Source: Escherichia coli
GTDB taxonomy: Bacteria; Pseudomonadota; Gammaproteobacteria; Enterobacterales; Enterobacteriaceae
Reading direction: 5' to 3' (one strand)
DNA: 64,000 bases
Assembly (NCBI RefSeq): GCF_048403405.1
Contig: NZ_CP183129.1
A program made the translations under genes and the position numbers. Every line of letters begins with the position of its first letter. Position 1 is the stretch's first letter. Below, one piece after another: positions 12,057-53,587 of the stretch. The notes beneath the pieces were generated by a model, which did no database searches, was not told the DNA's origin, and worked only from the letters and a program-made list of their open reading frames with translations.

Positions 12057-15000
12057 TCAGCTGATACTGATGCCTGCGGTGGCTTTCTTCATCACCACAA
12101 CCAGCAAATCGCTGATACTTGCTGTGGGATACCAGTTATTCACCAGCCATGCTGACACCGAAAACTCCAGCGTCATGTGGCCGCGACCAGCTGGCATATC
12201 AATAACACCACTGTAAATCAGCGTATTATCCAGCGCGGTACGGTTATAAATTTCAGCACCGTTTTTCCGTACTATCAGGCGGCATGACGAATAAATATCG
12301 TTATTCTCCCGCTCATGTTTAGCGCCGCTGAATGCCACCGCCGGAATAACAATTTGCCTGTCAAAAGGCTGATCGTCATAAATCCTGACGGTAATGGTCC
12401 CTGATGGCCACCGCTCCGGTGCCCGGGAGTCCCGCGGAAAAGCCTTACCCACTGTTTTGACTATATCGCCTTCAATCTGGTTGGCTGACAGTTTCCCCTT
12501 AATCTGACAGTTCTCATTAATTGTGACATTGTTGAGCGTCCCGGCGTTCGCATTCACACTGCCACTGATATCTGCATTTTTAGCGGTCAGTTTTCCGTCC
12601 GGTGTCAGGGAAAATGCCGGAGGATTACCGCCGCTGGTAATGGTGGGAGCCGTCAGGCGTTTCAGGAACACGTCGTTCATGAATATCTGATCGCCCTGAC
12701 CAACAAACATCGGCTTTGTGTTGCCATTCGCAGGATTAATCATCGCAATCCTGTCTGCCGCCAGCAGCACCTGACTCTGCATTCCTGCTGGCGTATTCTC
12801 AATACCGGCACCGATACCCGCAATATAAAGGCGTCCGTCCTGCATCTGCTGCAGCTTCACAGCCCACATGCTGTTCAGATTATTATTTGTATCAACCTGA
12901 ACCTTCTGTATCTGCTGGATTGCCGCACTCTGATTTTCCAGTTTTTTATTGACGGTCTGCGTGATTTCATTGCTGACATCCGTAATGGACGTCCTGATTT
13001 CAGCCAGGTCAGGCGCAAGCTGACCGTTATCAATCTGCGTCCACAACTCCTGAGCCAGATGGGTTTTCCCTATCTCTCCTTTGAAAAAATTCAGATAGCC
13101 GGATGCATCATCACTCGGCTGGCCAACAGCCTCCACAAATGCCGATTTGCCAACGGTGTTCACACTGCGGATGTAAAAATAATAATCATGGCCCGGTTTG
13201 ATATTGATACTGGCAGCTATCCAGTACAGCGCCGAGCCAAGATAGCGGGCTGCGGTTTCAACCTGCCTGATATCCGCAATCCGCTTTTCCGAGAACCAGA
13301 ACTCAAACTGTACCGTCGGGTCATACACCGCAAGACGCGGGACCGCCGTTATCTGAAAATAGCCCGGCGTCAGCTCAATCCGCGACGGTGCTGCCGGTGC
13401 GGCAATCCGGAATGTGGTGGTGGCAGGTTCACCCTGCTGGCCATAGCTGTTTATCGCCCGCACCGTCAGGGTGTATTCCCCCAGCGGCAGGCCGCTGAAA
13501 CGGTGCTCCGTGTCTGCGGTGATGGCGGTGGTCACCAGTCTGGCATCCGTTCCCTTACCACTGGTCAGGCGCAGACTGAAGCGCACACCCTTCACCACCC
13601 GCGGCGTGTCCCATTTCGCCTGCGCCAGATACTGTCCGTCAGCTGCGCTCACCTCCACCGTCAGGTGCTGCACTGCCGGTGGGATGACGCTGTTCAGGGA
13701 ACCTGACTGCGGCTCAAAGCGGGCACCGTTATCCACGATGGCTTCTTTTTCCGGTACGTGCTGCACCGCCGTGATGGCAAAGGTGCCGTCCGTGTTTTCC
13801 CGGACGGAGACACAGCGGAACAGGCGACGGCGCAGTGACGGCAGGGAGAGTCCCCACACCCCGTATGTCTCCACACCATCAGGCAGGGTACTGACCTGTA
13901 TCCGGTCCGGCGCGGGGTGTTCGGTGATGTCCACACTCACCGGCTTACCGCTGCCGTTAATCAGGTTCACCGTGGCGGCACCGGTCTCCGGAAGTGTCAC
14001 TTCACGGTCCAGCGTCAGGGTGCGGGTGGCAGCATCAATGGACAGGACACGTCCGCCGGTCAGGGTCCCGGCATAGTCGTTATCACAGATTTCAATGATG
14101 TCACCGGGTGTGTGCCGCAGCCCCTGAGACCCGAGCGTGAAATCCACCGTCTGCGTTTCCAGCAGTTCGGTCTTTATCACCCACAGTCCGGCACGGTGGG
14201 CCTGACCGCGGCTGGTACAGCCGAACGCGTCCATCTTCAGCAGGTTGCGTCCGTAGCGCAGTATGGCTTCCGGGTCTTCCACCAGTTCCGTGGAGGTCTG
14301 CCAGCCGTTCTGCGGGTCGGTGTAATTCACCTCCACCGCCGTGTGCCGGTCCTTCAGGGCACTGAAGCTGTAGCGGAATCCCACGCCGTTATCATCCACC
14401 ACCACATCGCTGTTGGTGTACGGCCACACCACATCCGACGGGCGGTCCTGAACGAACGTCAGCGTCTGACCGTTCCATACCGGCATACAGCGCATCGCAG
14501 AGCAGAAATCACTGAGAACGTCCCACGCCTTACGCTGTTGTGCCAGGTACGCATTAAAGGTCATCCGCGGCTCGGTCCCCCCGAAACCATCCGGGACCGT
14601 CTGGTCGCAGTACTGCCCGATGGCATACAGCGCCCACTTGTCCACATCCGCCGCCCCCAGACGTTTTCCCATGCCGTAGCGCGGGTGAGTCAGCATGTCC
14701 CACAGGCACCAGGCCGGGTTGTTGCTGTATGCCGGTTTCAGACTGCCGTCCCAGATACCACTGTACGTGCGTTTTTCCGGGTCATAGTTTGACGGCACCT
14801 GGATGATGCGACCGCGGATATGGTAGTTCACCGTCATCTGCTGGCCGCCGAACTGCTCCGCATCCACCTGCAGCCCCACAATGGCCGTGTTCGGGTAGCA
14901 CTGTTTCACATCGATGATTTCGGTGTATGACGACCACAGCGTCTTATTCTGCAGCTGGTCCGTGGTGCTGTCCGCCGTCTCCCTGACCATCCGGATGTTA

Positions 15001-15530
15001 AAGGGCCGGGGAGGCAGATTATCCAGAATCACCGAGGCCAGGAACTGCGAGGTGGTCTTGCCGTTAATGGTGACATCCTTTTCCGTCACCCAGCGGCCAT
15101 TACGCTGTAACTGAATCAGAATCCGGACAGAGGAAGGATTACGGTCGCCCTTTGACGTGGTCTGCACCAGTGACTGCACCCCGAAGGTAACCCGCAGGCG
15201 GTCAATGTTCGCGGACGTAATGGTGCGCGTCACCGGTTTTGCCTTCGTCACTTCCACGCCCAGTCCGGTTTCAGCACCGGAGGACTCAAAGCCTTCCGGT
15301 GGTGTCTGCTCCTGCTCCCCGGCGCGCCAGACCGCCGTCACACCGTGTATCACGGGATTACCGTCCGTGTCCGTCAGCGGGGTTTTGTTCACCAGGATAC
15401 TCTGCAGTCCCTTCACCGGACCTTCTATCGGTCCCTCACCAATCGCATCAATCACGCTCATCATCTGCGTGGATTTGAGATTATCCTTCGCCTCACGAGG
15501 CGTGTGTGCCTTACCGCCACCTTTTCCCAT
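12057..15530 (-). CDS. J: Tail tip / host specificity protein J
   Basis: 1157 aa, lambda gpJ-like throughout ([22 protein letters not shown]...). Confidence 0.9.
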
Positions 15531-15636
15531 ACAGCCTTCCCCTGAATAAATTAACCGCCACTTGCCATTCCGTACAGAAGTCGGATATCCTTCGCCCGAA
15601 AAGCATGAAACACATTTCTGCCATGCTAAAGAGAAA

Positions 15637-15668
15637 CCCCGGTATCAGCAGATACCGGGGTTTTCTTT
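15637..15668. terminator. Symmetric hairpin (possible bidirectional terminator) in the I-J intergenic insertion
   Basis: ccccggtatc-agca-gataccgggg followed by TTTTCTTT on + and by TTTCTCTTT on the - strand. Confidence 0.5.
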
Positions 15669-15735
15669 CATGCCCACCGATAATCCTGTTGGTTAAAACC
15701 GGTAATGGCATAAAAATTCTGAATATCTTCACATT

Positions 15736-15763
15736 TTCACAAACTGACTGTGGCGCGTATAAT
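15736..15763 (+). promoter_or_regulatory. Sigma70-like promoter in the I-J gap
   Basis: -35 TTCACA, 16 bp spacer, perfect -10 TATAAT. Confidence 0.45.
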
Positions 15764-15769
15764 TTCTCT

Positions 15770-15866
15770 GCGTTAATTTTTTTGTCGTGATATAAGAATA
15801 ATTCCTTACACTTAATCTTCGTAACTCTCCCGCAGTTCCTGTCCGCGATCACTGCGGGATTTTTTT
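15770..15866 (+). ncRNA. Candidate small RNA (~100 nt) between promoter and intrinsic terminator, antisense to the tail operon
   Basis: No ORF with start codon; ends in hairpin cccgcag...ctgcggg + T7 at 15829-15867. Confidence 0.3.
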
Positions 15867-15873
15867 ATTCTTT

Positions 15874-16554
15874 TTACCCCTGCCGCCCGATAACCACGAC
15901 CTTTCCGCCCCCGCCTTCATCACGGGTGCTGATGTCCTGGGATATACGGCGGGAGCCAACCAGCATTTCCCCGTAAGGCACCGGCATCGGGTTCCCCTGG
16001 GCAATCATGTTATCCAGTGAGGAAAAGTACGTGTTCTGTCTGCCGTTATCCGTTGCGCGGTAATCCGGTGTTTTTGCCTTCGGGGCCAGCATCTGGGCCA
16101 CACCGCCCAGAATCATGCTGGCTCCAAGTGAAAACAGCATCGTGGTGGCAGAAAAACCACCGGCTGCCAGGGCTGAACCCCATAACGCCATTGATGCCCC
16201 GGCAGTGAAGAAAGAGCCCACGATGGCTGCCGCCCCCAGCACAATCTGCAGTCCACCCTTTCCGGCCCCGGCCAGTCGCGGCACAATGTGGATGACCGTT
16301 CCCTCACCCAGCTGTTCGTGAAGACGGGCGTACACCGCCTCCGGTGCCGTGTCATAACCGGCAATACGTATCTGGTACCAGCCTTCGTTCATCTGACGGC
16401 GAAAGCCCGGCATCTGCATCGACAGGGCGCGAATGGCTTCCGCTGCCGTGTTCACATACAGGCTGAGGCGGCGGCCAAATCGTTGTAAATCCCCGTGAAG
16501 GCAGATGCGTGCCAGTGGCGGTGACGCCAGACTGAATGCGTTCGTCGTTGCCAT
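15874..16554 (-). CDS. I: Tail assembly protein I
   Basis: 226 aa MATTNAFSLASPPLARICLHGDLQRFGRR..., lambda gpI-like. Confidence 0.9.
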   Translation of the reverse strand: MATTNAFSLASPPLARICLHGDLQRFGRRLSLYVNTAAEAIRALSMQMPGFRRQMNEGWYQIRIAGYDTAPEAVYARLHEQLGEGTVIHIVPRLAGAGKGGLQIVLGAAAIVGSFFTAGASMALWGSALAAGGFSATTMLFSLGASMILGGVAQMLAPKAKTPDYRATDNGRQNTYFSSLDNMIAQGNPMPVPYGEMLVGSRRISQDISTRDEGGGGKVVVIGRQG

Positions 16555-36971: not shown

Positions 36972-37199
36972 GAATCCTCCCGGGCGGGATAATGTTGTGA
37001 GTCAGATAAGGAGCAGGCTGAAGTCCGGAAGTTACAGGACAATGGCAGAAGGGAGACTACAGCCCGCAATTCGAAAAAGACCGCGCAGTTGCGCAGAGTG
37101 ATTACTATGGGGTATTATTCGCCAGCTGAAATATTACTTCACGTTTTATTGTTTATTCCTTGCCGCCCGCGTCTCCCAGCGCGGGCTTTTTTTGTCCAT

Positions 37200-37440
37200 A
37201 AGAAAGCCCCTCCGGAGAGGGGCTAAAGCCGCGTATCTGTATCATCATGCACATGGTGCCGGGTGCCTCCCGGTGAGTTCAGCCCGGTGCCACTAAACCC
37301 GCGTCATTCTCGTTTTGATAATCAGAGATTATACCGTCACCAGTCGCCCCTCCGCTCAGGGGGATTCACCATGCGAAATTTTTTTAACAAATGCCCAGTC
37401 TGACAGGCAACTGTCAACTTACTGAATTGTGAGCAACATA
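37200..37440. repeat. Structured repeat copy 1 (~240 bp) in the tRNA-to-nanS spacer
   Basis: Shares blocks aaagcccctccggagaggggct, catggtgccgggtgcctcccggtga, gcccctccgc.cagggggattcaccatgc, ctgaattgtgag with copy 2. Confidence 0.75.
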
Positions 37441-37685
37441 GCATTTAACGGGGAACCTGTTTTCTGCAGTAAAAAGGCCCACCGGAGCGGATGGGCCTGG
37501 AAGGATAGCGGTCATGTGATGCCGGTTTCCCGGTAACTCAGCACCGGTATCTGAGTCAACGTTTTCTCTACTGGGTCATTTCCGATACGCCCTGCCTGCT
37601 GACAGGCTTTCATCACATCTGAAAATATAGCACCCTGACTGATACTGTAGTACCTAAGGTTCCAGAAACTGTGATGTATCCGGCA

Positions 37686-37905
37686 CAGAAAAGCCCCTCC
37701 GGAGAGGGGCTGGAGAGTGGCGCTATGTGCCATTGCATGGTGCCGGGTGCCTCCCGGTGAATTCAGTACCAGCACCTGAATCCGCGATTATCCCATATAC
37801 CTACTCGCTGATTGCCCCTCCGCACAGGGGGATTCACCATGCCAGTTTCTTTTAACAAACTCCCCGCAAACCAGACAACAGTCAACCGCCTGAATTGTGA
37901 GACAT
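37686..37905. repeat. Structured repeat copy 2 (~220 bp)
   Basis: Paralogous to 37200-37440 with the same conserved hairpins. Confidence 0.75.
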
Positions 37906-37946: not shown

Positions 37947-38023
37947 TGGCGCGTTGTACTGGATTCGAACCAGTGACCGATTGCTTAGAAGGCAATTGCT
38001 CTGTCCGGCTGAGCTAACAACGC
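37947..38023 (-). tRNA. argO: tRNA-Arg (anticodon TCT)
   Basis: Clean cloverleaf read by hand: acceptor gcgttgt/acaacgc, D-stem gctc/gagc, anticodon loop cttctaa, T-loop ttcgaat, 3' CCA encoded. Confidence 0.85.
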
Positions 38024-38036
38024 AGGATACAGATAA

Positions 38037-38113
38037 TGGACCGCCTTCGGGGACCCGAACTCCGCGCAACCAGCTTCGAAGGCTGGCGCTCTTTCCTGAT
38101 GAGCTAATGGCGG
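38037..38113 (-). tRNA. tRNA-like gene, possibly tRNA-Arg (anticodon TCG), imperfect stems
   Basis: Cloverleaf can be drawn (anticodon loop cttcgaa) but acceptor and T stems each have a mismatch and the T-loop lacks the usual A58. Confidence 0.5.
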
Positions 38114-38120
38114 TATGTGA

Positions 38121-38196
38121 TGGTGGCCCTTGCTGGATTTGAACCAGCGACCTGGCGATTATGAGTCGCTCGCTCTCACCACTGAGCTAAAGGGCC
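38121..38196 (-). tRNA. ileZ: tRNA-Ile2-type (anticodon CAT)
   Basis: ggccctttagctcagtggtgagagc...ctcataa...ggttcaaatccagcaagggccacca; closely resembles ileX-type tRNA. Confidence 0.85.
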
Positions 38197-45001: not shown

Positions 45002-45157
45002 TTACTCCTCAGGTTCGTAAGCTGTGAAGACAGCGACCTCCGTCTGGCCGGTTCGGATTCGTACCTCGCAGAGGTCTTTCCTCGTTACCAGTGCCGTCAC
45101 AATGACGGTTAAACAGATGACGATCAGGGCGATTAACATCGCCTTTTGCTGCTTCAT
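45002..45157 (-). CDS. hokD: Hok/Gef-family type I toxin (HokD/RelF-like, 51 aa)
   Basis: MKQQKAMLIALIVICLTVIVTALVTRKDLCEVRIRTGQTEVAVFTAYEPEE matches HokD; track ORF has an in-frame upstream extension. Confidence 0.85.
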   Translation of the reverse strand: MKQQKAMLIALIVICLTVIVTALVTRKDLCEVRIRTGQTEVAVFTAYEPEE

Positions 45158-45394
45158 AGCCTGCTTCCCCTTGCCTTTCGGCACGTAAGAGGCTAACCTA
45201 CATTTGTGAGACATAGATTGGGCCTCAGATTAATGTTAAGCGTCTTGCAGGACGCGAAATGTTAACTGGGGCTTTTCTCTATCTGCCTTTCAGTGTTCAT
45301 GCCTGAGACAGATAGCCTCAAGCACCCGCAGCCATTCTACTTAACTCACGTCACCTCGCCAATATGAAATCAATCAGAAAGGTGATCCATAAAA

Positions 45395-53529: not shown

Positions 53530-53587
53530 TTTCTGGTGACATTTGGCGGTATCAGTTTTACTCCGTGACTGCTCTGCCGCCCTTTTT
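53530..53587 (+). ncRNA. dicF: DicF small RNA (cell-division inhibitor sRNA)
   Basis: tttctggtgacatttggcggtatcagttttactccgtgactgctctgccgccc + T-run matches the remembered DicF sequence; lies upstream of dicB. Confidence 0.7.

Follow-up and report, generated by a model that had tools for sequence, protein, structure and literature searches.

The DNA analyzed here is a stretch of 64,000 nucleotides (nt) from Escherichia coli (assembly GCF_048403405.1, contig NZ_CP183129.1), referred to below as the window, and positions are window positions unless another record is named. The element in question lies in a prophage, in the gap between the tail genes I and J, both of which are encoded on the minus strand. 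This gap spans 15531-15873 (343 bp), and its right-hand part carries, on the plus strand, a predicted small RNA (sRNA) gene with a promoter and a terminator of its own. In lambda the corresponding gap is only 60 bp (I ends at 15444 and J starts at 15505; J02459 15445-15504), so that a preliminary description of this stretch was fair in calling the two lambda genes nearly contiguous. The calls for I and J in the window agree with the RefSeq annotation at the identical locus of strain ATCC 25922. The two tail genes and the parts of the sRNA unit are as follows:

12057..15530, minus strand: tail tip / host specificity protein J, 1157 aa (PHROG central tail fibre J, E 0)
15710 to 15736-15741, plus strand: upstream block ATAAAA-N-TTCTGA-N6-TTCACATTT, at about –60 to –34, invariant in 16 distinct upstream regions
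15736..15763, plus strand: sigma-70 promoter TTCACA-16 nt-TATAAT, 11/12 consensus matches
15770..15866, plus strand: predicted sRNA, divergent PasB / EcOnc22-24 allele, matched by the family profile over its full length, no open reading frame (ORF)
15798..15823, plus strand: conserved central motif AAUAAUUCCUUACACUUAAUCUUCGU, from per-column conservation in 13 alleles
15812-15820, plus strand: core UUAAUCUUC within the central motif, every position of which is kept in 84% or more of the 13 alleles
15829..15866, plus strand: Rho-independent terminator, stem CCCGCAG (15829-15835) / CTGCGGG (15852-15858), then A and U7; –15.7 kcal/mol, z –4.1
15874..16554, minus strand: tail assembly protein I, 226 aa (PHROG tail assembly, E 1e-79 to 1e-87)

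The promoter and the terminator, which had been reported in the preliminary description, were both found where it placed them. The –10 hexamer lies at 15758-15763, and the T7 tract of the terminator at 15860-15866; the terminator pattern occurs once in the 64 kb, against an expectation of 0 from shuffled sequences. The intervening stretch, described as about 100 nt with no start codon, corresponds to 15770-15866 (about 97 nt), which has no ATG and holds only 2-codon GTG/TTG frames. If transcription starts at the promoter-predicted +1, i.e., the G of a conserved GCGUUA at 15770, the RNA is 97 nt long; it is about 84 nt long if its 5′ end matches the published 5′ end of PasB, a homologue considered below, which falls at about 15783. 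The unit is convergent with I, and the RNA's 3′ end lies 7 nt away from the I stop codon.

Upstream of the RNA, both hexamers of the window promoter are identical to those of the expressed PasB gene of strain E2348/69. Across all 16 distinct upstream regions compared the –10 hexamer is conserved and the –35 hexamer is variable. The 6-nt spacer inside the upstream block varies among these regions, unlike the block itself, which could be an UP element or an activator-binding site. The motif TCTGA-N6-TCACA within it matches the core of the CRP site at 9/10 positions, but is centred near –44.5 instead of the canonical –41.5. PasB is reported to be lower in glucose-rich Dulbecco's modified Eagle medium than in lysogeny broth (PMC8550237). 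Judged from the bipartite invariant block and the non-conserved –35 hexamer, the promoter may be activator-dependent.

Two sets of experimentally detected sRNAs map to the same slot in other strains. PasB, for pathogenicity-associated sRNA B, was found by RIL-seq, which captures interacting RNAs through ligation and sequencing, in the enteropathogenic E. coli E2348/69, in prophage PP6, and was validated by Northern blot (Pearl Mizrahi et al., 2021, PMC8550237). It is annotated on the minus strand from 1466343 to 1466261 of NC_011601.1, a length of 83 nt (PMC8550237 table S6), and in an hfq deletion its log2 fold changes are –6.8 and –2.4 (PMC8550237). The same study lists 37 RIL-seq interactions of PasB with core and accessory transcripts (PMC8550237 tables S2, S5, S6); most of the partners are coding sequences (CDS) or 5′ untranslated regions (5′UTR), and PasB was classed by sRNA-type features (PMC8550237). 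Both tail genes of E2348/69 are on the plus strand, the end of the tail assembly gene being at 1466255 and the start of gpJ at 1466496. These positions place PasB inside the I-J gap and antisense to the tail genes, 6 nt separating its 3′ end from the I stop codon. When reverse-complemented, the PasB Northern probe aligns to the window terminator, at positions 15839-15861, with 3 mismatches, where 0 such matches are expected by chance.

The second set, EcOnc22, EcOnc23 and EcOnc24, was reported as plus-strand peaks in crosslinking and analysis of cDNA with Hfq, in the Sakai prophages Sp15, Sp14 and Sp11, respectively (Tree et al., 2014, PMC4104026 table S2). Sp15 is the Stx1 phage of the enterohaemorrhagic E. 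coli (EHEC) O157:H7 strain Sakai, and EcOnc22 was seen as an RNA of about 85 nt on Northern blots and was destabilized in an hfq deletion (PMC4104026); its targets were still listed as unknown in a 2021 review (PMC7873438). The published coordinates all lie within Sakai I-J gaps whose tail genes are on the minus strand. These peaks refer to an older version of the record (NC_002695.1) and, read on NC_002695.2, fall some 122 nt left of the units, so the Northern probe was mapped instead. Its reverse complement matches at 23/23 nt inside the unit of all three Sakai I-J gaps (NC_002695.2 2902836-2902926, 2676767-2676857 and 2166817-2166907; loci L018-L020). Taken without this correction, the peak coordinates would be mis-assigned to the J-proximal left module of the gap. 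EcOnc10, EcOnc11 and EcOnc12 were considered as further members and were not retained, EcOnc10 mapping next to the lysis genes in Sp12. With same-slot homologues detected as discrete, Hfq-dependent sRNAs in two other strains, the earlier suggestion of an independently transcribed sRNA embedded antisense in the tail operon gains support.

To place the window allele, we compared 19 units from 18 I-J gaps, i.e., the window and 17 fetched loci drawn from E. coli prophages and from records of Stx1a, Stx2a, Stx2c, PPompW, PhiR and ASU11 phages. The antisense position in the I-J slot is common to the window, E2348/69, Sakai Sp15, Sp14 and Sp11, and 16 other loci. The 19 units fall into at least six allele groups plus hybrids, and all of them share a 5′ GCGUUA (GCAUUA in EcOnc22), a U-run, an A-rich stretch, the central UCC(U)UA...UUAAUCUUC motif and the CCCGCAG/CTGCGGG-U7 terminator. 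The terminator stem is invariant in 13 alleles and is the sole consensus structure recovered. In the folds predicted for several alleles most of the central motif is unpaired, and it is preceded by an A-R-N-rich stretch (15794-15802); most alleles have 3-5 ARN triplets in a row at the corresponding position. The central motif can be inferred to be a candidate seed or Hfq-contact region.

The RNA of the window is 69% identical to PasB of E2348/69 and about 65% identical to EcOnc22. An nhmmer profile built from nine sequences of other allele groups, with the window's own group excluded, matches 15770-15866 end to end with an E value of 5e-16 and has no other match in the 64 kb; with the terminator removed, the E value is 2.2e-7. 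When aligned, the gaps of E2348/69 and of the window are nearly identical from about –60 to +8 and have the same terminator stem; the RNA bodies have diverged, and the J-proximal halves are unrelated. The window allele thus shares with PasB its slot, its antisense orientation, a 3′ end a few nt from the I stop codon, both promoter hexamers, the terminator stem and U7, the 5′ GCGUUA and the central UCCUU...AUCUUC motif. It differs from PasB in its 5′ third and its terminator loop, and in E2348/69 an unrelated module of 75 bp takes up the left part of the gap. Of the two, PasB is the one for which expression, dependence on Hfq and partners have been measured. With EcOnc22-24 the window shares slot and orientation, a homologous promoter block, 5′ end, UUAAUCUUC core and terminator stem; the EcOnc22-24 units differ in their weaker –35 and –10 variants (TCCGGC, AATAAT) and in an alternative left module.

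How far the window allele has diverged is illustrated by the search used in a 2026 survey of PasB, which ran blastn with the 83-nt E2348/69 query at word size 28 and a query coverage above 75% (Zhu, Shabalina and Storz, 2026, bioRxiv 10.64898/2026.05.13.724894). Under these settings the window allele gives no match at word size 28, and blastn at word size 11 aligns only the 25-nt terminator at the real locus, the longest shared exact word being 25 nt. Because this strict search misses it, we do not call the window allele PasB itself, only a divergent allele of the family. On comparison of their sequences and positions, PasB, EcOnc22-24 and the window allele form one syntenic family, and the window RNA is a divergent, apparently unnamed allele of a known, experimentally validated family. 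No statement equating PasB with EcOnc22-24 was found in the two PasB papers checked: the note on EHEC homologues is blank for PasB in table S6 (PMC8550237), and the 2026 survey does not contain the term 'EcOnc'.

A search of Rfam, proposed in the preliminary description as a check, gave no match to a known RNA, the family being identified from the literature instead. Over 15000-16400 at a permissive threshold (E up to 1), Rfam returned only noise (sR32, PK-repZ, sR28), far below the gathering score. The family has no Rfam model and no RefSeq annotation, and RefSeq/PGAP annotates nothing under the gap unit.

Of 5,426 complete E. coli genomes, 1,847 carry the module of promoter, sRNA and terminator, a single genome having it at up to 9 places. 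For 632 records, ATCC 25922 among them, the best match reaches an identity of at least 99% to the window allele; ATCC 25922 carries the identical 343 bp (NZ_CP009072.1 3960539-3960881, with the sRNA on the plus strand of that record). A further identity band of 80-90% holds the best match of 869 records; among the matches listed all are at 81-82%, the level of PasB proper. The closest alleles among phage records are those of PhiR5_1 and of Stx2c and Stx1a converting phages. The preliminary description had also considered that the insert might be a common, non-expressed scar shared with many lambdoid phages; the element is indeed very common, yet its homologues are expressed.

Beyond E. coli, 100,044 species representatives were scanned with a strict exact pattern, which would miss divergent alleles. 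True copies were found only in Escherichia albertii and on three short contigs of non-enteric assemblies, and the other eight matches are chance terminator matches. The three contigs probably reflect contamination or mis-binning. One, from a Collinsella metagenome-assembled genome (MAG; L028), does not differ from the window anywhere in the stretch shown, which takes in the promoter, and in the other two, a Clostridiales MAG (L025) and a 460-bp contig of Parendozoicomonas haliclonae (L029), the unit and its flanks match E. coli prophage alleles. PasB has been reported to be restricted to Escherichia and Shigella (bioRxiv 10.64898/2026.05.13.724894), and the scan agrees with this.

The rest of the gap has a different history. 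The 343 bp, taken in the preliminary description for a single insertion, do have that size and do occupy that slot; they are nevertheless a mosaic of two modules with independent distributions, the right 165 bp being the sRNA module and the left 178 bp a separate module with these features:

15531..15709, no strand assigned: left module, monomorphic and unannotated, filling the space between the sRNA module and the start codon of J
15562..15591, plus strand: weak promoter-like site TTGCCA-18-TATCCT, 9/12 matches, about 1.6 such sites being expected by chance in 2.5 kb
15634..15668, both strands: bidirectional terminator-like hairpin, 10-13 bp stem, loop AGCA, U-rich tracts on both strands

The left module includes the ribosome-binding region of J (about 15531-15545, minus strand). 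Of 1,450 E. coli records that carry it, 1,440 have it at an identity of at least 99%, and it sits in the I-J slot every time; it also occurs in 13 phage records. Searches of E. coli and phage records found no divergent homologues of it and no other contexts, and neither its ORFs in PHROG nor its sequence in Rfam gave a match. It is joined either to the window allele or to PasB proper (L006, L017). E2348/69, Sakai and the Stx1a and Stx2c phages are without it and have a different module of about 75-85 bp in its place.

Folding confirmed the perfect 10-bp hairpin with U-rich tracts on both strands: its arms are CCCCGGTATC (15637-15646) and GATACCGGGG (15651-15660), the stem extends to 13 bp with AAA/TTT, and the fold has a z of –7.6 on the plus strand and –6.0 on the minus strand. 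A simple consensus terminator scan missed this hairpin on both strands despite its T-rich tracts. The assignment of the hairpin to the sRNA unit did not hold, and it is instead the positional analogue of the sense-strand hairpin of lambda. The lambda 60 bp, the alternative left module (L004 440-500) and the left module of the window each have, just upstream of the ribosome-binding site of J, a strong hairpin that on the tail-gene strand is followed by a U-tract. Because all three J-proximal sequence types carry such a hairpin, we take it to be an ancestral feature of the I-J junction; it looks like a conserved terminator or stabilizer. As judged from the sequences compared, the sRNA module is inserted between this ancestral hairpin and the I stop codon. 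The weak promoter-like site lies about 45 nt upstream of the hairpin (15562-15668 for the two together), and the pair might, speculatively, produce a second plus-strand transcript of about 70 nt.

Rearrangements are also seen within the unit. Loci L003, L005 and L013 carry hybrid alleles, and the 471-bp gap of E. coli JNE170426 (L009; NZ_AP027217.1, 183-653) holds two complete units in tandem, one EcOnc22-like and one L007-like. In L023 (E. albertii NBRC 107761) and L025 (SFGJ01000116.1, 143-300) the sRNA body and terminator stand next to the 3′ end of I, and unrelated sequence with another strong hairpin takes the place of the promoter and left module; no J-sized ORF follows in L025. These two loci look like promoter-less remnants in rearranged prophages.

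Taken together, these observations make it very probable that 15710-15873 is an autonomous sRNA gene of the moron type, placed antisense between I and J, which is an allele of the PasB/EcOnc22-24 family and encodes an Hfq-dependent, trans-acting RNA. A moron is an autonomous promoter-gene-terminator unit inserted between two genes which, in related phages, are direct neighbours (Juhala et al., 2000, as cited in PMC4104026). Consistent with this definition, the unit has its own promoter and terminator and lies in a 343-bp gap that measures 60 bp in lambda; it differs from such units in carrying a non-coding RNA in place of a protein gene and in being transcribed antisense to the operon around it. 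Since the promoter is present and homologues are expressed in uninduced lysogens, the unit is expected to be transcribed by host sigma-70 RNA polymerase in the lysogen, independently of the Q-dependent late operon. By analogy with the homologues, Hfq would bind and stabilize the RNA through the terminator hairpin, the U7 tail and the A-R-N-rich stretch. The single-stranded centre, UCCUUA...UUAAUCUUC, of which the UCCUU is partly anti-Shine-Dalgarno-like, would serve as the seed for base-pairing in trans with host and accessory mRNAs, and through the divergent 5′ part the set of targets would differ from allele to allele. The hairpin of the left module would probably serve to terminate or insulate, with Q-modified polymerase able to read through it.

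Several observations count against this reading of the unit. The published 5′ end of PasB lies 15 nt downstream of the promoter-predicted +1, so that the 5′ end of the window sRNA is uncertain; processing in the U-run or low read coverage could account for the offset. The ARN stretch is barely above chance in individual alleles (p ~0.03 for the window allele). Among the 13 alleles the consensus structure shows 0 compensatory pairs, and because only the invariant terminator was recovered, without covariation, structure gives no independent support. The seed of PasB is itself only predicted from conservation, the published RIL-seq seed motifs being those of PasA and PasD (PMC8550237; bioRxiv 10.64898/2026.05.13.724894). 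For the window allele, Hfq binding and stability are predicted from sequence hallmarks, and the conserved blocks that flank the unit could partly reflect recombination and not function. Our literature search for the window allele sequence, and for sRNAs described between I and J, returned nothing beyond the papers cited here.

Other explanations of the same unit have to be weighed against a trans-acting sRNA. One is a cis-antisense regulator of the tail operon: the RNA could pair with the late mRNA, whose I-J intergenic part it complements perfectly, and lead to cleavage by RNase III, otherwise set the ratio of I to J, or silence leaky expression of J in lysogens. The convergent arrangement, in which 7 nt separate the 3′ end from the I stop codon, recurs in all loci examined, the slot is directly upstream of the host-range gene J, and the divergence of alleles, of which several can share one genome and two share one gap (L009), would make such control prophage-specific. 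However, no effect on tail genes has been published, late transcripts are essentially absent under the lysogenic conditions in which the sRNAs were detected, and a conserved centre with variable flanks is unexpected, since any sequence would be complementary to the opposite strand. As the function of the unit, control in cis is thus unlikely; it could coexist with a function in trans. If the gap were instead an inert mosaic joint, its promoter and terminator blocks would be linkers for the exchange of J modules and its transcription incidental. The mosaicism around and within the unit would fit, including one left module joined to alleles that differ by 30%, the hybrids in L003, L005 and L013, the tandem duplication in L009 and the promoter-less remnants in L023 and L025. 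Linkers would not, however, need the observed pattern, in which the –10 hexamer, the U7 tail and the internal 9-nt core are kept where flanks differ, and the homologues yield discrete, abundant, Hfq-stabilized RNAs in two pathotypes, which makes an inert joint improbable.

A conserved 3′ part, a variable 5′ part, a prophage origin and Hfq binding are also what one would see in a sponge of the AgvB/AsxR kind, in which the variable 5′ region mimics an mRNA target and titrates a core sRNA, and one RIL-seq chimera does pair PasB with an RNA region next to pasA. AgvB and AsxR are likewise short and have their own promoter and terminator. They lie, however, outside the tail operon, at the PR′ moron site that separates Q from the lysis genes, they are 51-60 nt long as against ~84-97 nt, and they are sponges of GcvB and FnrS with no similarity to the unit in sequence or covariance model. 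Identity with them was rejected on slot, on length and on the absence of any match to RF02702 or RF02703 at E up to 1. Given in addition that PasB was classed by sRNA-type features and that most of its partners are CDS or 5′UTR, a sponge function is highly improbable. That the gap is a small protein-coding gene is scarcely credible. Mechanical ORFs can be drawn at 15511..15852 (minus strand, 113 aa), at 15506..15790 (plus strand, 94 aa) and from an ATG at 15605 (plus strand, 61 aa), and hypothetical proteins are annotated on the tail-gene strand in ASU11 (gp9c, 66 aa) and PhiR12_1 (32 aa). Yet the mechanical ORFs belong to no PHROG family, run through the hairpin and overlap the J start, and they are not kept among alleles, whose indels are not multiples of three; RefSeq/PGAP annotates none of them, and the sRNA body is without an ATG. 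The gp9c ORF of ASU11 (L017 481-681, equivalent to window 15511-15711) spans the hairpin and has no PHROG family, and the 32-aa ORF of PhiR12_1 (L013 523-621) lies over the sRNA unit; both annotations are probably over-annotations.

Outside the gap, the prophage holds other RNAs that score above the Rfam gathering threshold, namely IS009, two STnc100, three tRNAs, sok and DicF. Their loci are 7671-7869, 37194-37403, 37681-37871, 37950-38196 and 45152-45327 on the minus strand, and 53531-53582 on the plus strand. The presence of IS009 near PasB agrees with a published survey of flanks (bioRxiv 10.64898/2026.05.13.724894).

The assignment of 15710-15873 to an sRNA gene of the PasB/EcOnc22-24 family concerns a large part of the species, the family being present in about a third of complete E. 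coli genomes and the window allele in at least 632 records. Because window-like alleles escape the search settings used, published counts of PasB may understate the family. Recognition of one syntenic family gives PasB, EcOnc22-24 and the window allele a common name and annotation model, and the allelic series, with its conserved frame and variable 5′ part, is usable for the mapping of seeds and targets. A further-reaching and quite doubtful idea is that the I-J slot holds a swappable sRNA cassette, with a fixed frame (activator-type promoter block, GCGUUA, UUAAUCUUC and terminator) and interchangeable 5′ and loop segments, whose alleles act in trans and also in cis on the matching tail mRNA; if this were true, the synthesis of J would be tuned or blocked for 'self' and not for 'non-self' prophages. 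As it stands, the sRNA gene between I and J extends a known class of prophage sRNAs and leaves the current understanding of that class unchanged.

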